In this document: in pieces, positions 1-14,990 of the stretch
Numbering within the stretch: the first letter of the stretch is position 1
How the letters are laid out: each line of letters begins with the position of its first letter
IMG/VR virus record: IMGVR_UViG_2660238423_000033
Length of the DNA: 14,990 nucleotides
Reading direction: 5' to 3' (one strand)
Origin: a virus
Taxonomy: Duplodnaviria; Heunggongvirae; Uroviricota; Caudoviricetes
Program-made: the position numbers and the translations under genes
The notes under the pieces: generated by a model
Database searches by the model: none
What the model was told of the DNA's origin: nothing
Seen by the model: only the letters and a program-made list of their open reading frames with translations

Positions 1-156
1 ATGGCAAAGCCGATCATCACGCTCAATGGCCTAAAAATCGTCATTATGTTGGGAATGCTGGTCATTATTCTCTGCGGTATCCGTTTTGCCGCCGAGATCA
101 TCGTGCCGTTTATTCTCGCATTATTTATTGCTGTTATATATAACTTATTTCGCATA
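1..156 (+). pseudogene. tqsA: 5' fragment of an AI-2E family transporter gene (TqsA/YdgG-like), interrupted after about 45 codons
   Basis: Translation [45 protein letters not shown] is a hydrophobic membrane-protein N-terminus that I recognise from memory as TqsA-like. From about nt 136 the frame diverges into AT-rich sequence (YNLFRITH) and stops at 154-156. Not in the ORF track because it is under 60 aa. Confidence 0.45.
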
Positions 157-862
157 ACACATTGATTTAATTAAATAATTAACACCGCAAAAGTGCCAAA
201 AATCGCAAAATGACTACACCAGTGACTACACCGTTCGGTGCACTGTATGAAACAACGTGGAACAAATAGACACAAGAAATATACAGGCGGATCATCTTTC
301 CAGGGGGAAGCACACCAATTCATGAGGGGCGTTAATGTCGATATGGGGATCCCCACCTACCGGAATTTTTTTCCGGTTAAACGTTAATCAGGCTGGTGGG
401 CTTTACCTGTTCGGTAGGTGTTATGATTATCGTAATACCTTTCCCCCAATGGGGTAAAAGCATCAACCGTAACGAAAGTCGTTATGGTTGCCACTGATAC
501 CCCAAATTTGGGTATCACGAGTAAGCCCCAAAATCTGGGTGTTACTCTTACTACCCAAACTACGGGTAGTTTCCGTAGTTTCATGGTCGAGTTGCAGATC
601 TGCAACTCCCCCATTAACCACAGGCGAATTTCCGCCTTCGGTCATTCCTTAATCATCTGCGTAATCATAATGATTATTCAGCAAGCGCAATTTTGCGCTT
701 TGCTTAAAGTTCAGCGAGTTACCGCGCCGACTTCCTCAAATTGAGGTTTCCGAAAATATCAGCGGGTTAGCGATTAAGCTGACCATTAATTAAACTGCGA
801 AAATGTCGTAGTTGTGAGGGGTGTAGCCAACCCATTTTTGGGCCGTCGGGAATATCAACCAG

Positions 863-1144
863 TTACCGCCGCAACCGCTCCGGCTTCTTCCAGTGGTACG
901 TGATTTTCTCCTTCTCCCGATACAGTTCAACGCGGCGATTGTAGGCCAGCATTTCAAGAACGCGGATCCGTATGTCGCGCATATCCGCATCATTAAGCTG
1001 GATACCATCACGGCGCATCACCTCAGCAACAACACGCGCATAATTTTCGGCTGTCACGCTGTCCGGCTGCGTGGTCTGTTCGTCAGCCTGCTGGCTGATT
1101 CCAGAGACGCGGCGGATTAATCGCAGTATTTCGGCTTCTGTCAT
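863..1144 (-). CDS. hypothetical protein (93 aa), last gene of the packaging operon
   Basis: ATG at 1144 with GAGG about 9 nt upstream, directly after the terL stop (1158). No family recognised (MTEAEILRLIRRVSG...). Confidence 0.5.
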   Translation of the reverse strand: MTEAEILRLIRRVSGISQQADEQTTQPDSVTAENYARVVAEVMRRDGIQLNDADMRDIRIRVLEMLAYNRRVELYREKEKITYHWKKPERLRR

Positions 1145-1157
1145 GCTGCTGACCTCA

Positions 1158-2819
1158 TTACACCCCGCTAAATTCTTCCAGTTTCTGGCGGTGGCTGTCG
1201 CTTATATCAAAAGCAAAATCCTCATGCTCTGCCTGGAATGTACCAAACGCCATCAGCGCCGCTACGCTCGGGTCTATCTTGTTCGGTGATTTTTTCTTGT
1301 TCGGCTTGATATTGGCGTTCGCGTCACTCTGCATCACGACGTTACTCATCGACCAGGACAACACCGGATCGCCACGATGCACAATCACCCTGCGGTTAAC
1401 AAAAACTTCGAACGATTTCGCCGCCGGACTGAATCTGAGGTAGGTTTGCGGGAACGGCTCCACCTCAAAACCAGCCCCCTGTAATTGCGTCCTGAGATGC
1501 GTGGCGTTCCACGTATCAAAGCCCACCAGCCTGATATTAAATTTCTCCGCATCCTGCATGATGTCATCTCTGATCCGGTCGTAATCAATGCAGTCACCTG
1601 GCGTTGTGCGTATCCAGCCCGCTTTAGCCCACTGGCGATAGACAGCGCGGTTTTTATTGGCGGGGTTCTGTAGCTGGAACTCCGGCAGATAATGACGGGA
1701 AACCAGCATGATATTTTTACCGACCGGAAAGGCATAGCACACGCTGGAAATATCGCTGGTTGATGATAAGTCCAGCCCCGCGTAACACTCCTGCCCGTGT
1801 AAATCTTCCTCCGTGAACGTTCCGGCACACTCAGCCCATGCGCCGTTACCCATCCACGGGGTAGCCCCCTGGCACCAGATATTAAATCGCTTTGTCATCA
1901 TCTCCACCCACTGCGACGGAATACCCCGCGCTTTCTGGATGGTTGAGGCCAGTTTTTCACGATCGACGGAAACATCAATATTAGGGTTCGCCTTTATCCA
2001 CATCGCCGGATCATCAACCTCGTTTTCGTCGTCCAGCTCGTAAATCAGTACAAAAATTGAATCGTTAACCTCTTCGCCGTCCAGGATCTGGCAGCAATAA
2101 TCATAGTGCTGTTTACAGGCTGAAACGACGTTGCTGCCTGATGTGGTAATGGCAAATAACAGCCCTTCGGGACGTGCGCCCATCCCCAGCTCAAGCGCGG
2201 AATAAACGCCGTTATCGGGGTGCAAGTGGTATTCGTCCACGATGGAAAGGCTTGGGTTTGTTCCCTCGATGGTTGCCGCTTTTGCTGCCAGCGGCTTTAA
2301 CAGGCTGTTGCTTTTCGGGTGTATCACCTTATGCGCCTGAATATTCACCCGCCTGCGTAACGGTCGGGATAAAAGGCACATCTGACGCGCATCATCAAAG
2401 ACGATCCGCGCCTGGTCACGGCTCACCGCTGCGGTGTAGATATCCTGCTGACCGTTCTCCATAATCAGAAACCAGTTAGCCAGAATCGCGGCGGTCGTGG
2501 ATTTCGCATTTTTGCGCGGCACTTCGATAAAGGCGCTCGTGTATTTGCGCCGTCCGGTGGCCTTAACCTTAAAGCCGAGGATGCACGCAAAGGCGAACTG
2601 CTGCCACGGCTCCAGCTCAATGGGTCTGCCACGCATCGGTCCTTTTACGTGCGGGCACACCCTGGAAAAGGCAATAAACCGCTCCACAACCTCACGATCG
2701 AACGTGTAAAGGGGGCTTTTAAGGTCCGAAAAGTACCGTTTAACGGCCTGTTTCAGCCGTTTACAGGCCGGAATTTTGCCCGTTTTTACGTCTTCTGCGT
2801 ACTTATTCCAGGCGGTCAA
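1158..2819 (-). CDS. terL: terminase large subunit (ATPase/nuclease)
   Basis: 553 aa with a characteristic TerL N-terminus (WNKYAEDVKTGKIPACKRLKQAVKRYFSDL) and typical length. The start codon is TTG at 2819 with AGAGGA 6 nt upstream; it overlaps the terS 3' end by 17 nt. Confidence 0.9.
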   Translation of the reverse strand: MTAWNKYAEDVKTGKIPACKRLKQAVKRYFSDLKSPLYTFDREVVERFIAFSRVCPHVKGPMRGRPIELEPWQQFAFACILGFKVKATGRRKYTSAFIEVPRKNAKSTTAAILANWFLIMENGQQDIYTAAVSRDQARIVFDDARQMCLLSRPLRRRVNIQAHKVIHPKSNSLLKPLAAKAATIEGTNPSLSIVDEYHLHPDNGVYSALELGMGARPEGLLFAITTSGSNVVSACKQHYDYCCQILDGEEVNDSIFVLIYELDDENEVDDPAMWIKANPNIDVSVDREKLASTIQKARGIPSQWVEMMTKRFNIWCQGATPWMGNGAWAECAGTFTEEDLHGQECYAGLDLSSTSDISSVCYAFPVGKNIMLVSRHYLPEFQLQNPANKNRAVYRQWAKAGWIRTTPGDCIDYDRIRDDIMQDAEKFNIRLVGFDTWNATHLRTQLQGAGFEVEPFPQTYLRFSPAAKSFEVFVNRRVIVHRGDPVLSWSMSNVVMQSDANANIKPNKKKSPNKIDPSVAALMAFGTFQAEHEDFAFDISDSHRQKLEEFSGV

Positions 2820-3159
2820 GCTCGTCCTCTTCTTCTGTTTCCGGTGGGTTTTTACGGCGGCTTATCGGGTCAAAACCGAGCAAGGAGGCCATTTTTATCA
2901 TCACCCTTTCAGCGTCTGATTTCGCGCTTAATGCGGGGTTTCTGCTCTCGCCGCCCTGACTGTTAACAATGCTGAACCCGCGCGCCGCAAGGTCTGCGAC
3001 GGCTTTCCGGTAAATGGAGTAGTTGACACAATACAGTTCCAGATTGCTCCAGTCGGCGGGGGTCAGGTCTCCCCGTTCCGCAAGCTGCCGCGATTTTTCC
3101 CGCCACTGCTTCACGGCGATGTCATCCAGGTAGGCGGGGGCTTTCGGTGGTCTTGCCAT
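2803..3159 (-). CDS. terS: terminase small subunit, P27 family
   Basis: 118 aa; MARPPKAPAYLDDIAVKQWREKSRQLAERGDLTPADWSNLELYCVNYSIYRKAV resembles P27-family TerS. Sits immediately upstream of terL. Confidence 0.8.
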   Translation of the reverse strand: MARPPKAPAYLDDIAVKQWREKSRQLAERGDLTPADWSNLELYCVNYSIYRKAVADLAARGFSIVNSQGGESRNPALSAKSDAERVMIKMASLLGFDPISRRKNPPETEEEDELDRLE

Positions 3160-3447
3160 GCTTATTTTTCGTCAGATTATTTTTCAAAAAATTCCCGTGC
3201 ATAAAAATTTGAGGAGGCGTTCGGTGCCCGGCGGGGTCGGGTTTGTCCTGAAAACGCCCCCCACCCCGTCATACAGCCTCATCAGCGATTGCGGAAACAT
3301 TCCATAACCTCGCGGTCACGGTCGGTTAATCGCTTCGCTGTGATGCGTTCTGCGCGTCCTGACGCTTTATCTTTATGCCCTGTTTCCTGTGTCTTCCATG
3401 CGTCACGCTGCCTTATAAGTCCACGGATAAGGCGGTTTTGTTCCCGC
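3160..3447. other. non-coding HNH-terS intergenic region, candidate cos (cohesive end) site
   Basis: 288 bp without a credible ORF between the HNH endonuclease and terS, containing a GC-rich tract (ggtgcccggcggggtcggg ... cgccccccaccccg). In HK97-like cos phages the cos site lies between the HNH gene and terS. Inferred, not demonstrated. Confidence 0.3.
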
Positions 3448-3888
3448 TCATTCATCAGCGTCATACATCCAGTTATTGCGGTTAGCGGCCCGTTCTTCCT
3501 CTTCATGAAATCCACCTGCGGCACGCTTGCTTTTTGTTGCCGGATCAAGCCATTTCGTTTTCTGGTTATGACACGCCTGGCACAATGGTTGATGGTTCCA
3601 TTCGGGCCAGAAGAGAACATCATCACCGCCATTAATCGGGATAATGTGATCCACCACCACGGCGGGCGTATATATCCCCTTCTCAAGGCATCGCACGCAT
3701 AACGGGTTTTTACTCAGATACATGGCGCGGTATTTGTCCCACTGTCTGGAGTACCCACGCGCGCGGCGGTGTCCTCGTCTGGCATCCTCTGCACGCCATG
3801 CCGCCCGCCTGTGCTCCTCACACTTGCCGGACTTCACGCGCCTGTTACAGCCTGGTTCTGTGCATCGTCTTAATGGTTGCCACGGCAT
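3448..3888 (-). CDS. HNH endonuclease (packaging-associated)
   Basis: 146 aa; Cys-rich N-terminus (CTEPGCNRRVKSGKCEEH) and an HNH core (VVDHIIPINGGDDVLFWPEWNHQPLCQACHNQKT). ATG at 3888 overlaps the connector stop by 1 nt. Confidence 0.85.
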   Translation of the reverse strand: MPWQPLRRCTEPGCNRRVKSGKCEEHRRAAWRAEDARRGHRRARGYSRQWDKYRAMYLSKNPLCVRCLEKGIYTPAVVVDHIIPINGGDDVLFWPEWNHQPLCQACHNQKTKWLDPATKSKRAAGGFHEEEERAANRNNWMYDADE

Positions 3889-4184
3889 CAGTACACCCCC
3901 ACATCACGGTAAGCCGTCCAGAGCGCGCCTATCGTCATGGGTACGCGCGTTTTTGCGTTATCCGCTACCAGCTGGCGATTCTCGTACAGGTGAGCGATAA
4001 ACATCATGCAGCCAATCTTTATGGCTGGCGTGAACTCCAGCCCGTCATCAAAGCGCCTGCCTATATGTATCTGGCACGCCTCAAGCGATGCGGCAATGTA
4101 TCCGCTGATTAACTGGTCTTCCTCGTCGCCATCGATGCGGCAATGGAGTTTCACTTCTTCCAGGGTGATAAGTTCTTCTGTCAT
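3888..4184 (-). CDS. gp6-like head-tail connector protein
   Basis: 98 aa; MTEELITLEEVKLHCRIDGDEEDQLISGYIAASLEACQIHIGRRF matches the gp6-like connector pattern. Start overlaps the upstream stop (ATGA). Confidence 0.7.
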   Translation of the reverse strand: MTEELITLEEVKLHCRIDGDEEDQLISGYIAASLEACQIHIGRRFDDGLEFTPAIKIGCMMFIAHLYENRQLVADNAKTRVPMTIGALWTAYRDVGVY

Positions 4185-4519
4185 TTTTCCGCGCCCTCAC
4201 GACAAAGAATTTCAAGGCGTGTCCTGGCGGCATCCGGCAGCGGCTGCCCGATGATATTCAGTACACGCCCCGCCAGCGGCCCCGTACTGACCTTTATCCG
4301 GCTGGTGGCGTTGATGTCCTTCCGGTACCGTATCCAGATCCTTACGGTACCAATCGCCAGCTCTGCACCCGATGAAATGGCCTCCTTGCTGCTGATCATG
4401 TTCACGCTTGCCCAGAGTGTGTGACCGTCCTCCCACGTTTCGAGTATTTCGCCGGTTATATCCCTGGTCTGTTTCAGGGTCTGAATCGTTACCCTGTCAC
4501 GCAGTCGCCCTATGTTCAT
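4181..4519 (-). CDS. head closure / head-tail joining protein (likely start at 4519; ORF track extends to 4561)
   Basis: MNIGRLRDRVTIQTLKQTRDITGEILETWEDGHTLWASV...VRIWIRYRKDIN fits the phage head-tail joining family. The ATG at 4519 overlaps the portal stop (ATGA) and has GAGGGAG upstream. Confidence 0.65.
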   Translation of the reverse strand: MNIGRLRDRVTIQTLKQTRDITGEILETWEDGHTLWASVNMISSKEAISSGAELAIGTVRIWIRYRKDINATSRIKVSTGPLAGRVLNIIGQPLPDAARTRLEILCREGAEK

Positions 4520-5727
4520 TCCGGTTTTTCTCCCTCGCTGATTTTTACTTCCTGTTTCCATGCCTGGCTGAACTCATCACCACCATCACGCGGGGACAGC
4601 CCTTCACGTTCGCGGGCTTCGTTCGGGCACATAACGCCGGATTTGATGCCGCGTTCATAGGTGGCAAAGCGTTCGCCAGGTGTGGCCCGTAACAGGTCCG
4701 CGCTGTCAAACTCCACCTGATACCGGATACCAGGTACAGGCGAGGCCACCAGCAGGGCGTTTTTTATCTGCTGCTCAAAGTTCGCCAGCCACGGGCGCAT
4801 CGTCATAGTGAGAAATGCGCGGCTTGCCTCGCTGAAATTGCTGTAGGTGCTGTTGCTGTATTCCTGCAAAAAAATCGGCGAGACGTTGAACATTCGGGCG
4901 ATGTCTTCAATGGTGAAGCGACGGGAGGCCAGCCATTCAGCATCCTGATTACTCATGCCCAGCTGCTGATAGCTCATACCCCCTTCAAGGATGGGCGTTT
5001 TTCCGGCGTTTCTGGCCCCTTTGTAGCGTTCCAGTGCGGCTAATGCCTGTTTGCCTTTCACGCCGTCCAGCCATTCGCCTGACGTGATAACCCCTGCCGC
5101 CATCATGCCATCACGCATCACGCTCGCGCCGTGGCGTTGTTGGGCCAGCCCAAGCCCCAGCGATTCGCGGCAGATGGTTACAGGTGAGCGCCCCATAAAA
5201 CCGTCATCCGTGGAGTAACGAAGGTGGAGAACCTCCCACGGTAAATAGTTGCGGGTGTTTCCGGTGTAGGCGTCAGTGATGCAGTAGCGCCAGTTGTGTT
5301 CGCCTGTCTGCTCCACGTTCACCGACTGCGGCGGGTAAGGATGTAAAGCCACCGGAAAACCATCACGCCCCCACTGAATCACCGCATAAGCATTACCGTT
5401 TAACAGGCAGTGGCGGATCATCATTCGCTTAAACTGGTAGGGAGTCTGCCACGCGTTCGGGCGCTCGTTGAGGATGTGATCGACCGGATGAGAATCAAGC
5501 CACTCTCGGGCCTCCTTCCCCTTCTCATTGCGTACCAGGTACAGGTAACACGGCATGGTAGCCACCGCCTCAGAGATGACCGTGACGGCGTTCATGACGG
5601 CGGGCAGTGATTCCGCTGTCCCCGATGATACGTACTCACCCGACCCCGTGTTCGATGTGCCGGCCAGCGCCATAAATTCATCCAGCGTCATGCTGCGCTG
5701 CTCTTTTTTTCTTCTGAAAGGCCACAT
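4516..5727 (-). CDS. portal protein, HK97 family
   Basis: 403 aa; N-terminal region (SLPAVMNAVTVISEAVATMPCYLY) and length are typical of HK97-family portals. ATG at 5727 is preceded by GGGGGTG. Confidence 0.9.
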   Translation of the reverse strand: MWPFRRKKEQRSMTLDEFMALAGTSNTGSGEYVSSGTAESLPAVMNAVTVISEAVATMPCYLYLVRNEKGKEAREWLDSHPVDHILNERPNAWQTPYQFKRMMIRHCLLNGNAYAVIQWGRDGFPVALHPYPPQSVNVEQTGEHNWRYCITDAYTGNTRNYLPWEVLHLRYSTDDGFMGRSPVTICRESLGLGLAQQRHGASVMRDGMMAAGVITSGEWLDGVKGKQALAALERYKGARNAGKTPILEGGMSYQQLGMSNQDAEWLASRRFTIEDIARMFNVSPIFLQEYSNSTYSNFSEASRAFLTMTMRPWLANFEQQIKNALLVASPVPGIRYQVEFDSADLLRATPGERFATYERGIKSGVMCPNEAREREGLSPRDGGDEFSQAWKQEVKISEGEKPE

Positions 5728-5728
5728 A

Positions 5729-6301
5729 TCACACCCCCGCTAAATCCGCCCACCAGCGGCGATTATCCGCACGCGGCATTTTTTCGGGGTGCTGCTCATA
5801 CAGGGAACGGCGGGCCAGCTCCACGCCGGAATCAGGGTAAGCCGGTACGGATGTAACGGTAATTTCGTACAGTTCCGCCACCAGCACGGTGCGCACGCAT
5901 GGATCTGTTGTGGTATCCCATACATCCTTACGGGAACGAAAGCCAAAGCTCATGCCGGATATATCACCACGTTTAACCAGTTCGATAACGTCACGCCCTG
6001 TGCTGGTATCCGGTGGGGTAAGTTCAAAGCGTAACCCTGTGTCGTCCTCTTCCAGTTTCAGCGTGCCGGAACGGGTGCGCCCCAGTAACATGCTGTGGTC
6101 ATGCTCATACAGGCCGCGAACGTCATTACCCGCCGCAAGCCACTCAGTAAACGCCCCCCGCTGGAATTTTTCGTAAAACTCCCCCCATAGCAGTTCTGAA
6201 AGCTTATCCCAGCGAACAACGTAGCCCGTCAGCGTACCGGCTCCGCTGGTGGTGATTTCCGATGACCGGATTTCCATACTCTTCATAATTTTTTCACCCA
6301 T
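5729..6301 (-). CDS. prohead maturation protease, HK97 family (true start probably the ATG at 6286)
   Basis: Motifs GYVVRWDKLS, GAFTEWL, LYEHD, LLGRT, DDTGLRFEL and GDISGMSFGFR resemble the HK97 prohead protease family. The first ATG (6301) has no Shine-Dalgarno; the ATG at 6286 has GGTGA 7 nt upstream. Confidence 0.85.
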   Translation of the reverse strand: MGEKIMKSMEIRSSEITTSGAGTLTGYVVRWDKLSELLWGEFYEKFQRGAFTEWLAAGNDVRGLYEHDHSMLLGRTRSGTLKLEEDDTGLRFELTPPDTSTGRDVIELVKRGDISGMSFGFRSRKDVWDTTTDPCVRTVLVAELYEITVTSVPAYPDSGVELARRSLYEQHPEKMPRADNRRWWADLAGV

Positions 6302-6310
6302 AAAACACTA

Positions 6311-6330
6311 AAGGGGCTTTTAAGCCCCTT
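6311..6330 (-). terminator. perfect palindrome between the capsid and protease genes (possible attenuator)
   Basis: aaggggctt-tt-aagcccctt, 9 bp arms, followed on the minus strand by a T-rich stretch (tagtgtttt). Placement after the major capsid gene would favour high capsid stoichiometry. Confidence 0.3.
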
Positions 6331-6340
6331 CTGTATGCTG

Positions 6341-7498
6341 TTAATCGTCGTCCTGTGGCAGTTCCAGAATCTTGATCGCGTTCGAATCCACCACGCCACC
6401 GCCTAAATATTTCTGCGTGAAAATTTTGATGAAGCCCGGCTCTGTGAGGTTGTCCGGTCTGGTGCGAACACCTGTTTCGTGATCAACAATGTAGTAACCG
6501 CGTTTGAAGTCACCCAGGGCAATAACGTTATCAGGCATAAACTCCAGATATTCGACCGGAAGGCCCAGCAACGTATCAGGATCACCCGCCTGTAAACGGT
6601 CGCGCCAGATGTAATCACCGTTCGCGTTCTTCACCTTCTGAAGTTTTGCCGCCGTCGTGGAGTTAACCACCCAGACCGCGTTTTTGCGGTATTTTTTACG
6701 TAATGCAAATTTCAGGTCGATCAGCGGGTCCGCAGATGTCCACGCCAGAGATTCGGAAGGTTTAATTACCTGCAACGTACCAAAATCACGCTCTTTGTCG
6801 TTCTTCTCTGCACGGGGTACGGATAAAAAACCTTTTGCTTTTTTGTCACCGTCGCCCACAACCAGATCGCTTTCTTCGGTTTCCGTGAAGGTGTCGCCAA
6901 TCTCACCCGTCAGCCATGAAAGGATGTCCACATCGGAAAAATCCACGATTTCCTGTGTGGTGCGCGGGTACGCATAGACCGGATACAGCTTAATGCTCAC
7001 CTCGTTAATCTGCGGGGTGCTGGTCTGTTCGCGTGCCTTACCCTCTTCACCGTGGTTAACGGTCGCACCGCCAGCGGAAACAAGCTGCTTAAACTCGTTG
7101 CTGCTGATTTTCTTCACGGTACAGATGCGGCGCATGGTGGATTCATCCGCCAGCATTCGCATGATTTCGGTGTTCAGCTCGGGGATAACGGTATAACCAC
7201 CATCAGCGGGAACGCCTGTACTTAATGCGCGGGTTTCACCTGTCAGGATGTAGTTGCGTAGTTCTGCGGGGTCAGTGGTCTGACTGCTTTTACCTGGCTT
7301 GCTGCGCTCTTCGTCTGCAATGGCTTCAAGGCGGGAAATGTCTTTATCGAGGGATTCAGCTTTAGTGCGTAATTCGTCAAATTTTGCGCCCTCAGCATCG
7401 TTAAGACTGCGGTTTTCTTTTTCCGCGTTCTCCAGCATGTCGCGCATCTGATTTTTAATGGCGGTTTTCTGCTGGCGTAATTCGATTATTCTCGGCAT
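6341..7498 (-). CDS. major capsid protein, HK97 fold, with N-terminal coiled-coil (delta/scaffold-like) region
   Basis: 385 aa; N-terminal about 90 residues are charged and heptad-like (IIELRQQKTAIKNQMRDMLENAEKENRSL...ISRLEAIADEE), as in HK97 delta domains. Position next to the protease and portal supports the call. ATG at 7498. Confidence 0.8.
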   Translation of the reverse strand: MPRIIELRQQKTAIKNQMRDMLENAEKENRSLNDAEGAKFDELRTKAESLDKDISRLEAIADEERSKPGKSSQTTDPAELRNYILTGETRALSTGVPADGGYTVIPELNTEIMRMLADESTMRRICTVKKISSNEFKQLVSAGGATVNHGEEGKAREQTSTPQINEVSIKLYPVYAYPRTTQEIVDFSDVDILSWLTGEIGDTFTETEESDLVVGDGDKKAKGFLSVPRAEKNDKERDFGTLQVIKPSESLAWTSADPLIDLKFALRKKYRKNAVWVVNSTTAAKLQKVKNANGDYIWRDRLQAGDPDTLLGLPVEYLEFMPDNVIALGDFKRGYYIVDHETGVRTRPDNLTEPGFIKIFTQKYLGGGVVDSNAIKILELPQDDD

Positions 7499-7534
7499 AA
7501 AAAAAGTCCTGGGGTTAAGTAAGGAACTCCAGGA
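7499..7534 (-). promoter_or_regulatory. stem-loop plus U6 abutting the capsid start codon; it contains the only Shine-Dalgarno candidate
   Basis: Minus-strand RNA gtcctggaguu-ccuuacuu-aaccccaggac-UUUUUU-AUG: an 11 bp stem with one mismatch and an 8 nt loop, then six U and the capsid ATG. The AGGA in the 3' arm is 7 nt from the ATG. Confidence 0.4.
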
Positions 7535-7708
7535 CGCGGCAAAAACTCAACCGTTTTTCATAAGGAAATCAGCAATCGCACCGATCGTTTTCCCGCCTGG
7601 TAATGAATATTGGCGAGAACATTAACAGGCGGAAAAGTGGCCCCAGCGTCCTGGCACCACGGGCGAGAATAATCATGATTCAGTTCGGGTAAAATATGCC
7701 GATCCGCT

Positions 7709-7738
7709 CAGTGAACAACGTGGAACAACCACGAACAA
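7709..7738 (+). repeat. three GAACAA hexamers phased at exactly 10 bp (candidate regulator binding array)
   Basis: cagtGAACAAcgtgGAACAAccacGAACAAataa, with hexamers at 7713, 7723 and 7733. The same architecture occurs at 246-275 and, on the other strand, at 13681-13730. Confidence 0.45.
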
Positions 7739-7754
7739 ATAATTTACAAAAAAT

Positions 7755-7780
7755 GACAAAAAGCCGGATTTCTCCGGCTG
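7755..7780 (-). terminator. rho-independent terminator after the 74 aa gene
   Basis: Minus-strand RNA gccgga-GAAA-uccggc followed by uuuuugucauuuuuu; lies 12 nt after the stop at 7790. Confidence 0.6.
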
Positions 7781-7789
7781 TATGGGTGC

Positions 7790-8013
7790 TCAGTCCCTGA
7801 TCCCTTTCAGAAATTCTATCAATGCATCTATCTGTTCAGGATTTACCGCCAGCATTTCACCGGATAGAGCACATCTCACAAAACCATGCTGATCCTTTTC
7901 AATCAGTGCGCCCGTCTCCAGGAATGCGCGGTAATCATTGATGCTCATCGTCTCCATGTTGTCAGCATGGTATTTATCACGCTGTTTTAATATCTCATCA
8001 AATTTCATCGGCA
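7790..8013 (-). CDS. hypothetical protein (74 aa from the ATG at 8013; ORF track extends to 8092)
   Basis: MPMKFDEILKQRDKYHADNMETMSINDYRAFLETGALIEK...; GAGGA lies 7 nt upstream of the ATG at 8013. Flanked by terminators on both sides, so it is a stand-alone transcription unit. No family recognised. Confidence 0.5.
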
Positions 8014-8107
8014 TTGTTTTTTCCTCTGTTGTGTCTGTTTGTTTCAGATAGTAACTATGCCTGACCGTGACGAAAACCCGGTAATGCACCATACCGTTTC
8101 AACTGGT

Positions 8108-8134
8108 GCAAAAAAAGCCGGATTTCTCCGGCTG
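8108..8134 (-). terminator. rho-independent terminator after the perC-like gene
   Basis: Same 24 nt sequence as the terminator at 7755-7780 (aaaaagccggatttctccggctgt on the plus strand); the minus-strand hairpin is followed by U7. Confidence 0.65.
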
Positions 8135-8138
8135 TTGA

Positions 8139-8411
8139 TTAGCTGTCTGGGTAATTACGCCATATTTCATCGCTTACACCATCTATACCCATTTCAGCAT
8201 AAGTGCGATCTACTGCCTTTCTCAGGTCTCTGAAGTTATCCGGCGGCTCCGGTGGCTTCTGTGCCTTCCTGGAACATTCCAGCCGTCGCATCGTAACCTG
8301 ATGCCGTTCCTTGTCTGTCTCCACCAGCAGCATGACTTCACCCCATCGCGCCGCCGCCCTCCGGTAAAAGCCTTTCGCCTCGAGTTCTTCCGCTATGCGG
8401 TCATGTACCAT
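8139..8411 (-). CDS. PerC-like transcriptional regulator (91 aa from the ATG at 8411)
   Basis: MVHDRIAEELEAKGFYRRAAARWGEVMLLVETD resembles the PerC family N-terminus as I remember it. GAGGGGG lies 5 nt upstream of the ATG at 8411; the longer track ORF would overlap ssb. Confidence 0.5.
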   Translation of the reverse strand: MVHDRIAEELEAKGFYRRAAARWGEVMLLVETDKERHQVTMRRLECSRKAQKPPEPPDNFRDLRKAVDRTYAEMGIDGVSDEIWRNYPDS

Positions 8412-8421
8412 CGCCACCCCC

Positions 8422-8832
8422 TCAGAACGGAATACCGTCACCGTAAGGGTCATCGCCTCCCGCTGGTGGCTGATTACCCTGTGTGCCTGTGGTTTTGCGT
8501 CTGTTCCCGCCAGGAAGTGCCGCACGGGCACTGATTACGCTGTCTGCAATAACCTGATAACCCTGCCGCGTTTCCCCATTCTGTCCGGTCCACTGGCTGA
8601 CCTGCATCGTGCCGGATACGCTGGCAACGTCGCCTTTTTGATGTTTAGCCAGGAAGTCGGCCTGCTTACCAAATGCGATGACCGATAGCCATAACGTCGC
8701 CTGCCCATCCTGCGCCTGACTACATGGCAGCGATACCGCCATACGCGCCAGCGTCATCGGTGTACCCTTGCTGGTCTGTTTTACCTGCGGGTCGTCCACC
8801 AGCCGCCCGTAAGCTGCTATCTGTGCTGTCAT
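8422..8832 (-). CDS. ssb: single-stranded DNA-binding protein (short, 136 aa)
   Basis: OB-fold core WLSVIAFGKQADFLAKHQKGDVASVSGTMQVSQWTGQNGETRQGYQVIADSV, a Gly/Pro/Gln-rich linker and the canonical acidic C-terminal tail ending DGIPF. GGAGAGGTGG precedes the ATG. Confidence 0.8.
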   Translation of the reverse strand: MTAQIAAYGRLVDDPQVKQTSKGTPMTLARMAVSLPCSQAQDGQATLWLSVIAFGKQADFLAKHQKGDVASVSGTMQVSQWTGQNGETRQGYQVIADSVISARAALPGGNRRKTTGTQGNQPPAGGDDPYGDGIPF

Positions 8833-9107
8833 GATTCCACCTCTCCGGTTTTAACGTTGATGGTTGTTACCTGTTCCGCTTCGGCAATCTCCCGCTCTGT
8901 CAGCGTGGCAAAATTTGCCGCCGTCGTGGTCATGAATGCGCTTATCAGTTCGGGATGTGCTTTCGCGTATCCTTCCCCCGCGTGGCGGTCTATCGTTCTG
9001 ATTGCCACCTTTAAAGCGTGCTCTGTCATGTCTAACGCGCGATATTTCGGTTCTGTTCTGTCTCTGCGTTTTTTGAGTGATTTATTAAATTTCCCTGAAG
9101 TGTGCAT
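8829..9107 (-). CDS. hypothetical protein (92 aa), first gene downstream of the origin
   Basis: ATG at 9107 with GAGGGGG upstream; its stop overlaps the ssb start (ATGA). No family recognised. Confidence 0.45.
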   Translation of the reverse strand: MHTSGKFNKSLKKRRDRTEPKYRALDMTEHALKVAIRTIDRHAGEGYAKAHPELISAFMTTTAANFATLTEREIAEAEQVTTINVKTGEVES

Positions 9108-9149
9108 ATTTATTTTTACCCCCTCGTTTAAAAAGTTTTGAGTTGTGCC

Positions 9150-9385
9150 TCCCCTTGTCTACCTTATCTACCTTAGTGGCCCTCATACCAGTAATGGCGC
9201 GGCTTTCAGCTGGGTAGAGTGCTTTTATCCACTATCTACCCCGTGTCTACCTCCCTGTCTGATTCAGGTAAAATCAGGTAGAGAGGGTAGATAGTGGGTA
9301 GACAGTAAAAAAAGGCTATCTACCTAACTTAATGCACTGAATTAAATGTATTTTTCTTTACTCAGGTAGACAGGGTAGACAGCAA
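9150..9385. repeat. replication origin: iteron array (GGTAGACA and variants, both orientations) around an AT-rich core
   Basis: At least 11 copies of GGTAGA(C/T/G)A or its complement TGTCTACC/TATCTACC (for example 9156, 9166, 9233, 9244, 9278, 9287, 9298, 9317, 9366, 9375), with an AT-rich stretch at 9330-9360. Begins 14 bp after the pri-rep stop. Confidence 0.65.
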
Positions 9386-9395
9386 TTACAAAAAA

Positions 9396-11150
9396 TTATA
9401 AAAACGCGTCGCACTCGTCTGTTGTTATTGCGTTAGTCTGCGTTACTCCCTTAACTTTCCGCGTAATATATTCATGTCCGTAAACTTTCGCGGCTGGCTT
9501 CATAGCCTTGCCAAAGTCATTTACGTTTAGCGGTTTGCTCCTGCCTGCGTACGCCATAAACGCCAGATAGACGCGGTAAAGGCTGTTTCTGGTCGTGTAC
9601 TTCACTGAATCGCCACCGCCGCCCATCATCAGGCCGCGTGCTTCCTCCAGAAAATTCAGGAACTGGCAAAACTCAATAACCGGATCCGTCTGTTGCTTTA
9701 TTGCCAGAGCTTCATCACCGTCACGCTGTTCCAGTAGTAAAGCCCGTGCCTTCTCAGGGTCGGTAAAGTTCGCCAGCAATCGGCGGATAATGACAGGGAT
9801 TTCAGCCGCGATCTTTTCCGGTAGCTCCCTGTCTTTTTCGGCCTCACTGACGATATTGTCGAAACGGAAAATCACGCGACGACGTGCCACACCTCCGGCC
9901 CGTTCGGTGAATATCATCGGGTTATTGTTGGTCGCCAGCACCACCGCCCTGATTACAGCCGTGAAACGCTTTTCGTATTTCGGGTTAATTTCCACGGGGT
10001 CACCGCCCGTGATTTTCTTGATGCCCGTTCCTTCGCCTGTATATTTCGGCTGGTCAGCCAGGACGATAAGACGACTCCCGACAACCTGCGCACGTCCACC
10101 AGCATCATCAAGCGATGTCATTTCAGCGCTTACCGTGTTCTGTTTCCCTGCCAGAAGGCTGGCTATGTGCGTGAATGTACTTTTACCGCTCCCGCCGTCT
10201 CCGGTGGCCTCAATAAACATCTGCCAGTCGTACCGGTTCGCCATAATCATGTACAGCGCGGCACATATACGCATCATCTTGCGCGGGTCTTTTCCGGCTG
10301 CGTGCTCAAGCCATTTATGAAAGTTTGGCGCGTTATCGCGGATGTTCTCCCCTGGTGCTGGTGGCGTGTACTCAATGCCGTTGTGCGTGGTGATCCAGTT
10401 CTCCGGCGTGTGCGGGGAAAATTCCCCCGTTTTCAGGTCAAGCGCACCATTGGCGAACGGCAGCAAATCGCCGGACGGCTCGCCCATTGGTTCGGCAATA
10501 ACTTTTAACGCTTCCACGGCGTTATTGATTACGCGCTTGCTGAAAGTGGCCCTGTGCTCTGAATAGATCGCCACCATTTCGCGGCTAAGTTCCATTGTGC
10601 TGACCGGACACCATACCCCGCCGCGCCATACGTGAACGATTTCACTTTCAGGATGTACGCAAACGCCATCAAAGCGATCGGCAAGCAGCTGCGCGCGCTC
10701 ACTGTCCGCCATCTGCGAAAGTTGCGCCTTTTGCTTTACCGGAAGCTCAATGACCAGACCATCAGAAAGATTCTGGCGCTCACGAGCCAGATATTCGCGC
10801 CAGTTCTCCACCTTCTGACCGTGCATACCATCAGGGTAAAAATTTGCATCCTGTACGCCTGCCGCCGCCAGCTTCTGACCAATCGCCTTTATCATTACTG
10901 GCGCAAGATATCCGGCCCTGAATATGCGCACGGATTTTCTGCCTTCCGGCACAATTTGCAGCTTATCCAGTTCGGATAACTGCTGCTCCCCAAGCCACAC
11001 AGGAGGCTCATTATCTCCGGCCATACGCGCGTCATGTTCCTGCCATTGTTTTGCGTGTGACCAGGCATCACTACCCGCAAAAATAATGACTTCAGTTTCT
11101 TTGTGTTTTATGCCGCGTGACTGCTGTTTTACGTTCGGTGCCAGTTTCAT
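9396..11150 (-). CDS. primase/replication initiator (Pri-Rep), P4-alpha/D5-like with a Walker A NTPase
   Basis: 584 aa; Walker A motif ATGDGGSGKST mid-protein, with the N-terminal half consistent with a primase region. ATG at 11150 has AGGGG upstream and overlaps the upstream stop. Confidence 0.85.
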   Translation of the reverse strand: MKLAPNVKQQSRGIKHKETEVIIFAGSDAWSHAKQWQEHDARMAGDNEPPVWLGEQQLSELDKLQIVPEGRKSVRIFRAGYLAPVMIKAIGQKLAAAGVQDANFYPDGMHGQKVENWREYLARERQNLSDGLVIELPVKQKAQLSQMADSERAQLLADRFDGVCVHPESEIVHVWRGGVWCPVSTMELSREMVAIYSEHRATFSKRVINNAVEALKVIAEPMGEPSGDLLPFANGALDLKTGEFSPHTPENWITTHNGIEYTPPAPGENIRDNAPNFHKWLEHAAGKDPRKMMRICAALYMIMANRYDWQMFIEATGDGGSGKSTFTHIASLLAGKQNTVSAEMTSLDDAGGRAQVVGSRLIVLADQPKYTGEGTGIKKITGGDPVEINPKYEKRFTAVIRAVVLATNNNPMIFTERAGGVARRRVIFRFDNIVSEAEKDRELPEKIAAEIPVIIRRLLANFTDPEKARALLLEQRDGDEALAIKQQTDPVIEFCQFLNFLEEARGLMMGGGGDSVKYTTRNSLYRVYLAFMAYAGRSKPLNVNDFGKAMKPAAKVYGHEYITRKVKGVTQTNAITTDECDAFL

Positions 11151-11911: not shown

Positions 11912-12143
11912 AACCACCCCCATTTTCACAATCAGCAATCAGGATGGCTTTAGCCTCATTCAGCGCCATATCAGCACTAAGTTGCATAACCGCCAGCGAA
12001 TGAGGAACGAAAGCCCCGGCATATTCTGTTTCACTGGTGTCGTGCTTATGCGCCCTGTCAGCAATAACAGAAATATCAATCAGCGCATGCATTAGCGTTA
12101 TGATGGCTTCGGCGGCTGCGTCCGGACGGGTGTTATTGCACAT
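11904..12143 (-). CDS. hypothetical protein (79 aa)
   Basis: Strong AGGAGGT 6 nt upstream of the ATG at 12143. No family recognised. Confidence 0.55.
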   Translation of the reverse strand: MCNNTRPDAAAEAIITLMHALIDISVIADRAHKHDTSETEYAGAFVPHSLAVMQLSADMALNEAKAILIADCENGGGYA

Positions 12144-12339
12144 GGCACACCTCCTGACGAATACGGGCAGCGAATACCATCACGCAGCCAGCCGGAGATT
12201 GCTGGCGTGCTTCCTGTTCGCTGGTGGCCTCAATGGTAATCACGCGCGGTTGTGCCGTGCTCAGGGCGATAAAACGCCAGATGTATTTATTCAGGTTGTG
12301 CGAGTCCCGCCCTTGCGGGTGTATGGTATGATTTCTCAT
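12133..12339 (-). CDS. hypothetical protein (68 aa), first gene of the leftward operon
   Basis: Internal ATG at 12339 of the 339-codon track ORF, with GAGG 5 nt upstream. Only this C-terminal part has a ribosome-binding site; the remainder of the long ORF is rejected. Confidence 0.4.
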   Translation of the reverse strand: MRNHTIHPQGRDSHNLNKYIWRFIALSTAQPRVITIEATSEQEARQQSPAGCVMVFAARIRQEVCHVQ

Positions 12340-12529
12340 AGCTACCTCGATACTTTCGCTATCGTTGGTGGTTAGACGCCCTGCATGTGTGCCACCACTG
12401 CGGGGCGTTGTTGTTTGGTGCATCGCACCATTCGTTTTTAACCTATCAGTAAGTGAATCGCACTTCAAGTCTTTCTCTGAAATTTTTTTTGTGTATACTG
12501 AATCGCACCAACTTAGAGAGGATTCAGTA
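12340..12529. promoter_or_regulatory. divergent promoter/operator region between the leftward operon and the plus-strand RHH gene
   Basis: Plus-strand candidate -10 TATACT at 12494-12499 with a TG just upstream. Direct repeats TGAATCGCAC at 12454-12463 and 12499-12508, plus a related CATCGCACC at 12421-12429. Confidence 0.4.
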
Positions 12530-12709
12530 ATGGCAACAGGTTCAACAAATAATAAGTCGCAACAGTTAAATGCCAGATTCCCGCATGATGTTGTTGCAGA
12601 CTTAGAAAAAAATTTAGATGAAGGTGAAAGCAAGGCGCAATTTATAGTTACTGCCGTTAAAGGTGAGATCAAACGCCGCCAGCGTCGCAAGGCCAAAGAG
12701 CAGGAGTAA
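12530..12709 (+). CDS. ribbon-helix-helix (Arc/Mnt-like) DNA-binding protein, 59 aa
   Basis: QQLNARFPHDVVADLEKNLDEGESKAQFIVTAVKGEIKRR aligns by eye with the Arc repressor strand-helix-helix (QFNLRWPREVLDLVRKVAEENGRSVNSEIYQRVMESF). GAGAGGA precedes the ATG at 12530. Confidence 0.5.
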   Translation: MATGSTNNKSQQLNARFPHDVVADLEKNLDEGESKAQFIVTAVKGEIKRRQRRKAKEQE

Positions 12710-12766
12710 CCATCACCAGCGCCGTGGTGTGAGTAACTACGGCGCATTGCTATGCAGGACAACACA

Positions 12767-12940
12767 ATGACCGATAAAGAATTGACCAAAACATTATCAC
12801 CGGCACGGAAAAGACGGCGCAGAAAGATAGAACATGAATCAGAAAGATTCGCGCCATGTGCTTTTGCCCTTGAGCAATTCCTTAAAGAGTACAGGGAAAA
12901 GCGCTCATTGCAGGTATGGCAACGAACTGAACCAGACTGA
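12767..12940 (+). CDS. hypothetical small basic protein (57 aa from the ATG at 12767)
   Basis: MTDKELTKTLSPARKRRRRKIEHESERFAPCAFALEQFLKEY; AGGA 7 nt upstream. Co-oriented with the RHH gene and upstream of the plus-strand terminator. Weak call. Confidence 0.3.
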   Translation: MTDKELTKTLSPARKRRRRKIEHESERFAPCAFALEQFLKEYREKRSLQVWQRTEPD

Positions 12941-13035
12941 TTGCATTGCCCACCAGCCTGATAGCGGCTATCATCCCCGTGCTTATGTTTGGGATCACAC
13001 ACACAAACGGCGCAGCGGGTTATCTGTTCAGAAAG

Positions 13036-13063
13036 GCGGCTCCATTTCGGGGCCGCTTTTTTT
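13036..13063 (+). terminator. rho-independent terminator ending the plus-strand cassette
   Basis: gcggctcc-atttc-ggggccgc, an 8 bp stem with one G-U pair, followed by T7 (13057-13063). Confidence 0.6.
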
Positions 13064-13209
13064 ATGCCTGAAAAACCCCAATTTTGTGGTTTTCCAGTCT
13101 CACCAGGGCGAACGAATCCCCGCCCACGTTCTGGCGTATATTCAATCTTCATGGTTATAGCTCTGTGTTCAGATGATTGATGTGTGGCGGCTGTGTGCCG
13201 CCAGCGTGA

Positions 13210-13398
13210 TTAATGAACTGCCTTGCAGCTATCCTTCCAGGCCAGAACCTCGGATAAAGACCAGCCAACGGAACGACCGCCAAGTTTACGACGTGATGGG
13301 AATTGTCCGGCCTTTTCCAGGCGGTAGCGGCATGAGCGGCTAAGGCCTGTTAGCTTTTCGCATTCTTTTTCACGTATAAACCGATCAGTGCTTAACAC
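13210..13398 (-). CDS. alpA: AlpA-family transcriptional regulator / excisionase-like protein
   Basis: 62 aa; EKECEKLTGLSRSCRYRLEKAGQFPSRRKLGGRSVGWSLSEVLAW matches the AlpA family. The start is GTG at 13398 with AGGGGG 6 nt upstream. A hairpin without a U-tract (tggcggc-tgtgt-gccgcca, 13185-13203) lies 7 nt downstream. Confidence 0.85.
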   Translation of the reverse strand: MLSTDRFIREKECEKLTGLSRSCRYRLEKAGQFPSRRKLGGRSVGWSLSEVLAWKDSCKAVH

Positions 13399-13772: not shown

Positions 13773-14990
13773 TTATTTTCTTCTGGCTACTGGTAGCGTG
13801 GTTACGTTTTCATGTGTTCCCGCCAGTATCCCTAACCGCTCCGTCCACATATCCAGCGCATTGCGTTTAGCATCCAGATAACGGGAATGATTATAAACTC
13901 GCTGCATTCCTGGCATCTGATGACCTGTAAGCTGCTCCACGACATGCGGATCAACGCCTAAATCGTTCAGCATGGTTGTAAAGGTGCGCCGGATGTCATG
14001 CAGTGACCAGTGAGGATGATTAAGCCTCCTGTGCGCTAATCTTCCATACTGCGATACGCTGGCCTCCTGTTTCGCTTCCCCCAGCAATAAGCCCGTGTGC
14101 CTGTTCTGCTCCACCAGCTGCGTGACGAACGGCAGGATCGCTTCCGGTATGGGCCGGAATATTGCGACCTTCGTTTTGCTGTGCTCCTTCGGAACGGTCC
14201 ATAGCATTTCCGTAAAATCCCACTCCCCGATCTCCGATAGCCTCAGTTCTACCGTCCTGGCTCCGAAGACAATCAGGAGGCGGATTAACGCGACGTAGTA
14301 AGGGGAAAATATTTTTTTGTCCAGTGCCTGCAATAATTCGCCAAGTTCTTTGTTACTTAAGACACGTTCGCTTATATCCGGTTTTTTCCCAACGTCCGCC
14401 ACGTTCAGATCGTCCAGAACGTTGCTGATTGCATAGCGCCGCCTACGGCAGAACTTAAGCGCCTGTTTGCACGCCTGTAGCACGAATCCGGCAGTAACAG
14501 GCGTTCGCTTTGCCACCTGGTCAAAACAGGCCAGCCAGTGCCGTAGCTCGCATTTATCCAGCGGCATAGCACCAATCTGCTGTATTACGTGATTATTAAG
14601 TCGCCTTTTCAGGGCGATATAATCCACGCGGTTTTCCTTTACGTAATACTCAAGCCAGTAGGTGAGCGCATCGCCAACCGTTACGGGCTTTAACGCTTCC
14701 TGTACGGTGTAATTCATCTCATGACGTGGATTTTTCCCCTCAGCCAGCCATGTGCGACACTGTGCGGCTTTTTCCCTGGCTGCTTTCAGGCTCAGATCAG
14801 GATAACTTCCCAGCTTAATGCGTTCGGGTCGTGTCTCCCTTCCCGTTCCGGCCCTGTATGTGAAATACCAGGTCAATTTCCCTGATGTTAAATATTTCAC
14901 GCTCAGGTTTCCGCCATCACTATAAAACGTGTTTTTCTCCGCTGGCTTACCATGAAGTTTCCTTAGCAAGGTATCGCTCAGTTTGTTCAT
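13773..14990 (-). CDS. int: tyrosine site-specific integrase, P4 family
   Basis: 405 aa; N-terminal arm-binding domain (FYSDGGNLSVKYLTSGKLTWYFTYRAGTGRETRPERIKLGSYPDLSLKAAREKA) and a C-terminal catalytic region (HDIRRTFTT, LTGHQMPGMQRVYNHSRY carrying the catalytic Tyr). The ATG is the last three bases of the window. Confidence 0.95.
   Translation of the reverse strand: MNKLSDTLLRKLHGKPAEKNTFYSDGGNLSVKYLTSGKLTWYFTYRAGTGRETRPERIKLGSYPDLSLKAAREKAAQCRTWLAEGKNPRHEMNYTVQEALKPVTVGDALTYWLEYYVKENRVDYIALKRRLNNHVIQQIGAMPLDKCELRHWLACFDQVAKRTPVTAGFVLQACKQALKFCRRRRYAISNVLDDLNVADVGKKPDISERVLSNKELGELLQALDKKIFSPYYVALIRLLIVFGARTVELRLSEIGEWDFTEMLWTVPKEHSKTKVAIFRPIPEAILPFVTQLVEQNRHTGLLLGEAKQEASVSQYGRLAHRRLNHPHWSLHDIRRTFTTMLNDLGVDPHVVEQLTGHQMPGMQRVYNHSRYLDAKRNALDMWTERLGILAGTHENVTTLPVARRK

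Follow-up and report, generated by a model that had tools for sequence, protein, structure and literature searches.

A capsid-first packaging operon in Escherichia coli tqsA, probably of a capsid-forming satellite island of the EcCIEDL933 lineage

Results

The stretch of DNA analysed here (the window: all 14,990 nucleotides of IMG/VR record IMGVR_UViG_2660238423_000033) comprises nearly the whole of a ~15 kb island inserted in the Escherichia coli gene tqsA and carries every substantial open reading frame (ORF) on its minus strand. Its packaging operon runs on that strand from position 7498 down to position 863 and encodes, in order of transcription, the major capsid protein, a prohead protease, the portal, a head-closure protein (Hc1), a head-tail adaptor (Ad1), an HNH endonuclease, a small basic protein of 60 amino acids (orf60), the small (TerS) and large (TerL) terminase subunits and a protein of 93 amino acids. 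Our analysis identifies this region, with a probability of roughly 93%, as the capsid-and-packaging operon of a ~15 kb capsid-forming phage-inducible chromosomal island (cf-PICI) of the EcCIEDL933 lineage. Its non-canonical gene order is shared, as a conserved layout, across the family of proteobacterial cf-PICIs. An initial annotation, made from the sequence letters alone, had given this gene order except for orf60; the genes it named lie at the coordinates it stated, and its family assignments were confirmed by Pfam and PHROGs.

Gene families were assigned using these two collections; the Pfam matches lie well above the curated cut-offs and the PHROGs matches are concordant. The genome of the O157:H7 strain GTVSS-023 and the structure PDB 9GYI served as proxies for the EDL933 chromosome. 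The first gene of the operon (6341-7498, minus strand, as are all following genes of the operon) encodes a major capsid protein of the HK97 fold (PF05065, E 1.6e-61). It is followed by a prohead serine protease of the HK97 family (5729-6301; Peptidase_S78, PF04586, E 7.5e-48), 97.4% identical to the O157:H7 island protein, and by the portal (4516-5727; PF04860, E 9.2e-91), for which the identity is 99.3%. Head closure Hc1 (4181-4519; PF05521, phrog_25) is HK97 gp7-like and the head-tail adaptor Ad1 (3888-4184; PF05135, phrog_40) is HK97 gp6-like. The Hc1 frame extends upstream as far as an ATG at 4561 (4181-4561); the start assigned by the Prokaryotic Genome Annotation Pipeline (PGAP) in near-identical genomes is 4519, which gives a 4-nt overlap with the portal gene. 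The HNH endonuclease (3448-3888; PF01844, phrog_144, E 1.1e-44) belongs to a class of enzymes that act as packaging cofactors of HK97-type terminases. TerS is of the P27 family (2803-3159; PF05119, E 1.3e-23); it shows 0 substitutions across the 106 residues aligned with its O157 counterpart and carries a single PGAP accession (WP_000113645.1) in strains 20.1, GTVSS-023 and MBT-5. TerL (1158-2819) combines ATPase and nuclease domains (PF03354 and PF20441) and is 98.6% identical to the O157 island protein. The operon ends with the 93-aa ORF (863-1144; phrog_1561, E 1.5e-55).

All ten module ORFs are intact and of full length, with conserved starts and overlaps. The intergenic distances amount to 39 nt between capsid and protease, 1 nt between protease and portal and 13 nt between TerL and the 93-aa ORF; overlaps were measured for portal and Hc1 (4 nt), Hc1 and Ad1 (4 nt), Ad1 and HNH (1 nt) and TerS and TerL (17 nt), so that the coupling of most genes by 1-17 nt noted initially is essentially right. 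The TTG start codon proposed for TerL was likewise seen: a GAGGA ribosome-binding site lies upstream with a 5-nt spacer, and the TerL of vB_KppS-Ant (81% identical) is annotated with the same TTG-ACC-GC-TGG-AAT start. Because the N-terminus of TerL is conserved, the TTG start appears credible.

A terminator scan revealed a GC-rich 9-bp hairpin with a T-rich tail (6310-6331, minus strand) in the 39-nt spacer between capsid and protease. It is terminator-like or attenuator-like and may tune the stoichiometry of capsid and protease; in phage HK106 an annotated terminator directly follows the major head gene, in parallel to the hairpin of the window.

The near-identity of the module to the EcCIEDL933 island carries our interpretation. 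The capsid protein matches PDB 9GYI, the model of the EcCIEDL933 capsid with T=4 symmetry (He et al. 2025, 10.1101/2025.02.11.637232), at 382 of 385 residues (99.2%). The ten module proteins are 93.5-100% identical to those of the O157:H7 island with unchanged order (Hc1 96%, Ad1 99%), and module DNA identity is 97.3-97.4%. The initial annotation had proposed a dedicated satellite layout, not a deletion derivative of a prophage, and here it agrees with the published work on EcCIEDL933. That element has a size of 15.4 kb, and the layout conserved in proteobacterial cf-PICIs reads capsid-protease-portal-connectors, then hnh-terS-terL (Alqurainy et al. 2022, 10.1101/2022.09.08.507074). Mutations in its module genes abolish transfer of the island (severely reducing it in the case of gene 1792) and leave helper transfer unaffected; mutations in capsid or terminase genes of the helper have no effect on EcCIEDL933, while helper tail mutations abolish its transfer (Alqurainy et al. 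2022). The same mutagenesis showed the module to make small capsids and to need only tails from the helper (Alqurainy et al. 2022). The structure of the T=4 capsid, 47.5 nm in size, has been solved; tail-less capsids are released, and tail compatibility is set by adaptor and connector (He et al. 2025).

The SatelliteFinder model for cfPICIs comprises 11 core components and forbids tails and holins (PMC10085698). Scored here via Pfam and PHROGs matches in place of SatelliteFinder's own profiles, all 11 of the 11 core components are present, and no window ORF matched a tail or holin component in either collection. In detail, an integrase, a regulator of the AlpA/MerR/Stl type and a primase-replicase occupy the left half; capsid, protease, portal, adaptor and head closure are all recognised above the curated Pfam cut-offs; and the element has its own HNH, TerS and TerL, a size of ~15 kb and the gene order of the proteobacterial clade. 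Judged by tblastn identity, capsid and TerL appear to fall in a satellite-only clade, far from phage homologues. The canonical order running into tail genes, as expected of an HK97-like prophage, was not found in the window. Neither tail nor lysis genes were detected in the window (Pfam, PHROGs) or in the chromosome flanking near-identical islands; the initial annotation had noted that nothing follows the module at its connector end.

The closest relatives of capsid and TerL were searched by tblastn against a phage collection (50,697 phage records for the capsid). Capsid matches above 40% identity were confined to four records, i.e. vB_KppS-Ant (65%), the last ~16 kb of P12620-1 (64%), a 3.8-kb fragment (64%) and Pmp8 (58%), and true tailed phages reached at most 37-40%. 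For TerL the same satellite-type records scored 81-82% and 68-69%, followed by an abrupt fall to at most 36%. vB_KppS-Ant (LR881103, "Escherichia phage") is a 16.5-kb "induced prophage" and Pmp8 (OR544139) a 15.3-kb Pasteurella record; both have the module order of the window, an integrase and a primase, and no tail module. The same order and a size of ~15-16 kb were found, each time without tail genes, in relatives at 77-100% DNA identity from five E. coli contexts (four insertion sites) and in Klebsiella- and Pasteurella-type records at 58-82% protein identity. At the fis/yhdJ and hpt/gcd sites, two more distant E. coli relatives (DNA identity 78-81%) are tail-less islands of ~15 kb with the same order.

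Several of these records deserve comment on their own. vB_KppS-Ant, Pmp7 and Pmp8 have the size of satellites and were deposited as phages. vB_KppS-Ant has a 765-aa gene after TerL with the deposited label "tail length tape measure protein" (unchecked), and the first gene of Pmp8, just upstream of capsid, is labelled "tail terminator" (unchecked); neither has a counterpart in the window. P12620-1 ("Klebsiella phage") is a sparsely annotated record of 106 kb whose last ~16 kb (PQ569648.1, 90271-106503) constitute a cf-PICI-like genome running from terS to an orf60 homologue; it looks like a chimeric assembly of phage and satellite.

The relatives bear directly on the possibility that the region is a decayed HK97-like prophage, which has lost its tail, lysis and lysogeny genes and whose head genes were scrambled. 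Such a scenario would agree with the fact that the module proteins are all of HK97-type phage families, with the integrase and the chromosomal location of the element, and with a frameshift in the TerL gene of the related strain 20.1. In the window, however, none of the ten ORFs is disrupted, the backbone is of PICI type and no tailed phage is closer than 36-40%. Independent decay is also unlikely because the same compact, tail-less order extends to Pasteurella, where protein identity is 24-69%, and recurs at four E. coli insertion sites in five contexts. The published phylogeny, furthermore, shows deep satellite-only clades (Alqurainy et al. 2022). We therefore consider decay very improbable. 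Close relatives in ordinary tailed prophages with the same order and adjacent tail genes, which the initial annotation had named as evidence that would overturn its view, were looked for and not found, the tailed phages staying at or below 40% (capsid) and 36% (TerL).

Islands of the kind in the window are widespread. A survey with SatelliteFinder counted 969 cfPICIs; they occurred in 13% of the genomes of Enterobacteriaceae (De Sousa et al. 2023, PMC10085698). Of the complete E. coli genomes, 163 hold ~15 kb islands that match the whole window at a coverage of at least 80%; the module alone, at the same minimum coverage, is present in 413 of 5,426 complete E. coli genomes, and 1,286 gave any match to the module query. 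In strain MBT-5 the module is 100% identical. This strain is unrelated and has a different replicase, and the identical module beside a different replicase suggests recent horizontal movement and recombination. The finding argues against a fossil, i.e. a cf-PICI by descent that is now immobile in this strain, for example by inactivation of its regulator, cos or replication module. The full-length module ORFs with conserved starts and overlaps, and the intact integrase, alpA and primase genes, point in the same direction. In favour of a fossil, the mobility of the window island is deduced from its sequence, some relatives carry pseudogenes (the TerL frameshift in 20.1 and an internal stop in the portal gene of JNE070796) and the replication module is mosaic between strains. 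On balance we regard immobility as improbable, if less so than prophage decay.

Helper independence is the least credible of the alternatives. The region could in principle belong to an element resembling a gene transfer agent, or to an autonomous mini-phage, that packages DNA without a helper: after 9GYI, capsid and portal of the Rhodobacter capsulatus gene transfer agent are among the closest solved structures (E 7.6e-47), and relatives of 15-16.5 kb (vB_KppS-Ant, Pmp8) were deposited as "phages". Tail, tail-fibre and lysis genes are absent, however, so neither autonomous infection nor autonomous release is to be expected. The element's own TerS and HNH, together with a conserved cis-region, argue for specific and not for random packaging, and the published data on tail mutants show helper dependence. 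There is next to no probability left for such an element.

The segment between the HNH and TerS genes spans 288 bp. The initial annotation had the distance right and described an empty gap; the segment in fact contains orf60 (3282-3464, minus strand; phrog_3173, E 7.5e-37; WP_000174068.1 in the PGAP annotation of relatives), a conserved ORF that overlaps the end of the HNH gene by 17 nt and leaves a true intergenic region of only 122 bp (3160-3281). orf60 is annotated in every relative examined, with an identity of 100% in the O157:H7 island and 40% in vB_KppS-Ant. A tblastn search against the phage collection returned a single weak match, to a 1.6-kb fragment, so orf60 appears to be no recognisable component of the tailed phages in that collection. 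Since the EcCIEDL933 capsid is gene 1786 and the genes are consecutive, orf60 is probably the counterpart of "hypothetical gene 1792", whose mutation severely reduces transfer (Alqurainy et al. 2022). This phenotype is compatible with loss of the protein as well as with a cis effect on cos.

The 122-bp region is the likely candidate for the cos region, as judged by conserved blocks and by the ends of deposited records. It shares the blocks GGTGGGGGG..TTTT and TCAAATTTTTA.GCA.GG.AATTTTTT with Pasteurella Pmp8, although the proteins of the two elements are just 24-69% identical. The linear record of vB_KppS-Ant starts 22 nt before terS and ends 37 nt past the orf60 homologue, within the conserved region; the cf-PICI-like part of P12620-1 starts at terS, and the record stops inside the orf60 homologue. 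Because of these shared blocks and record ends, positions 3160-3281 are the best candidate for cos. An internal HNH-cos-terS junction had been taken as a mark of a satellite. It is not diagnostic as such: any integrated cos prophage has its cos site inside, since its map and that of the DNA in the virion are permutations of each other. What remains unusual is the position of the head block upstream of HNH, its reversed internal order and the absence of tails.

The remaining parts of the window fit the PICI backbone. At its left end (1-144, plus strand) lies a 5' fragment of the chromosomal tqsA gene, which the island splits; in near-identical genomes PGAP annotates a partial AI-2 transporter at the left and the 3' part of tqsA beyond the integrase, and the island spans ~15.0 kb between both tqsA fragments. 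In strains 20.1 and MBT-5 the split tqsA lies between mdtJI and pntAB, with core genes on both flanks and no phage genes outside the island. The tyrosine integrase marks the other island end (13773-14990, minus strand; PF13356 and PF00589, phrog_1), its PGAP start being 12 nt past the window. On the same strand follow an AlpA-family regulator/excisionase, the PICI activator (13210-13398; PF05930, E 5e-18; phrog_2790), a D5/P4-type primase-replicase of 584 aa (9396-11150; PF08706, PF19263, PF03288; phrog_864, E 1.2e-175), a single-stranded DNA-binding protein (SSB; 8422-8832; PF00436) and a PerC-family activator (8139-8411; PF06069, E 3e-44), the latter two just upstream of the operon, and a 74-aa ORF (7790-8014) between the PerC gene and capsid. 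This early half also holds several small PICI-type genes and a DUF4222 protein. The replication module is mosaic (~9083-10787): a D5/P4-type primase here, a RepA-family helicase in MBT-5 and a DUF927 protein in O157:H7. Left-half module exchange between PICIs and cf-PICIs has already been published, and the mosaicism of the window agrees with it.

E. coli Nissle 1917 carries a classical PICI, which forms no capsids of its own and likewise ends in a homologue of the 93-aa ORF (~95% DNA identity; 12004-12285 of that locus); the ORF also matches alone in many hundreds of genomes. Judging from this distribution it is a gene of the PICI backbone, outside the phage-derived module.

A 339-aa ORF at 12133-13152 (minus strand) is a single open frame whose C-terminus matches phrog_6196, "transcriptional repressor". 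In strains 20.1 and MBT-5 PGAP breaks the same stretch up into an Icd-like gene, a YlcI/YnfO gene on the opposite strand and a truncated pseudogene; possibly this island variant alone has the gene in intact form. The ~580 bp from the left island end to the 93-aa ORF (284-862) are of lower GC content, and we found in them no convincing gene and no Rfam family; positions 156-492 and 706-875 are kept at 81-90% in the O157 island.

Near-identical terminator hairpins (AGCCGGAGAAATCCGGCT plus T-run) are located at 7762-7779 and 8116-8133 (minus strand), after the 74-aa ORF and the PerC gene, respectively. As both lie just upstream of the capsid gene, transcription of the packaging operon seems to require antitermination or a promoter of its own. 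A sigma-70 promoter scan of positions 600-8500 gave fewer matches than shuffled sequences and none on the coding strand. An Rfam scan of the whole window at the gathering threshold found no RNA family, thus no known structured RNA in the HNH-TerS gap, and a tRNA scan of the window found none, so the island is not tRNA-associated.

Imperfect direct repeats of 76 nt occur near both island ends (208-283 in the window; 6208-6283 and 21034-21112 in the near-identical genome L001, the right copy lying past the window end) and contain a tandem TGACTACACC. A AACAACGTGGAACAA motif recurs at both island ends and just upstream of the capsid gene (7714-7758 in the window, 13714-13758 in L001). The repeats were considered as attL/attR cores and ruled out, the left copy being present in the O157 island at a different site as well. 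They look like putative arm-type sites of the integrase or binding sites of a regulator.

Discussion

Our results place the window island in the EcCIEDL933 lineage of cf-PICIs, and we found nothing that contradicts this assignment. A few points limit its reach. First, the activity of EcCIEDL933 was shown by experiment, while the window island with its tqsA site and D5-type primase is known from its sequence alone. Second, positions ~9083-10729 have no match in the O157 island, and the rest of the replication and regulatory half is only ~92-93% identical. Third, HK106-type tails are predicted for the island solely from the identity of Hc1 and Ad1, the equation of orf60 with gene 1792 is based on gene numbering, and the position of cos is derived from sequence.

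The steps to infectious particles were shown for EcCIEDL933 and would, given the near-identity, apply to the window island as follows. A helper, an HK97-like prophage such as HK106, would activate the island via AlpA, whereupon the island would excise and replicate with its own primase. Transcription of the operon would provide capsid, protease, portal, Hc1, Ad1, HNH, orf60, TerS and TerL. Capsid protein, protease and portal of the island would then build T=4 procapsids of ~47 nm, which take ~15 kb and would be too small for the 41 kb helper genome. TerS, TerL and HNH of the island would recognise and cut the island cos, probably in the 122-bp region, and package island concatemers only. Finally, Ad1 and Hc1 would close the head and form the docking surface for helper-made tails, giving rise to infectious particles; tail-less filled capsids could also acquire tails of other phages. 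The partner tails are predicted to be of HK106 type, since Hc1 and Ad1 are 96-99% identical to the O157 proteins and Hc1 is, of the module proteins, the one closest to HK106.

The feature itself is already known. That cf-PICIs make their own capsids, steal tails only and cross species boundaries by means of different tails has been published since 2022, and cryo-EM exists for nearly the same capsid (99.2% identical). The case can thus be seen as a validation: a satellite-specific architecture was rightly recognised from raw sequence alone. The window contributes a further mosaic variant, in tqsA and with a D5-type primase, and draws attention to the orf60/cos segment; it yields no new biology. 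In the published view the layout goes back to an ancient acquisition, after which it was streamlined. The role of orf60 and the cis-region is the sole part for which the literature consulted offers no explanation. As a tentative and rather doubtful idea, orf60 might be a fourth, satellite-specific packaging factor that acts with the 122-bp cis-region to give TerS, TerL and HNH exclusive specificity for the island cos, in which case the capsid-first order would have been selected for expression stoichiometry and would be no historical accident.

Compared with tailed phages, the window shares its protein families and the HNH-dependent cos packaging chemistry with HK97 and HK106, and differs from them in architecture. 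HK106 (NC_019768), the helper of EcCIEDL933, reads terS, terL, portal, protease, capsid, Ad1, Hc1 and tail genes, with HNH at the right end, just as the initial annotation had described HK97-like phages in general; the tailed phage YeP1 also keeps the canonical terS-terL-portal-protease-capsid order. In the window, by contrast, the head block is located upstream of HNH rather than downstream of terL, no tail-related gene follows the module, and the order of the head genes is reversed with their orientation kept (capsid-protease-portal and Hc1-Ad1 versus portal-protease-capsid and Ad1-Hc1). A single inversion does not suffice to generate this order, because it would flip the strand, too. Only four window proteins are detectably similar to those of HK106, namely portal (26%), Hc1 (49%), TerL (27%) and HNH (38%, to the right-end HNH). 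The HK106 genome measures 41.5 kb, and the capsid of HK97, to which He et al. (2025) compared theirs, has T=7 symmetry versus T=4 in EcCIEDL933.

Classical E. coli PICIs (EcCICFT073-type; the one in Nissle 1917 was examined) have the same integrase, alpA-type helix-turn-helix protein, Icd-like protein, DUF4222 protein, P4-type primase, SSB and 93-aa gene as the window island. They lack portal, protease, adaptor, head closure, HNH and TerL, and use capsids and TerL of the helper.

Other cf-PICI-type elements (15-16.5 kb) are 24-83% identical to the window in their proteins and differ in the accessory genes after TerL. Head closure is the most divergent protein in vB_KppS-Ant (38%) and Pmp8 (24%), in line with published work that assigns tail specificity to adaptor and connector; in JNE070796 (hpt/gcd site) the head closure gene is not separately annotated and the portal gene has an internal stop.

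The closest known system is EcCIEDL933 as represented by the O157 island. The insertion sites differ (tqsA for the window island; the examined O157:H7 genome has its island between phoQ and roxA), and so do the replicases (a 584-aa D5/P4-type primase versus a 710-aa DUF927 protein). The backbone is of the same type in both, with integrase, alpA, Icd-like protein, DUF4222 protein, replicase, SSB and PerC, and the operon order is the same throughout, down to the small ORF that separates HNH from terS and the 93-aa ORF at the end.

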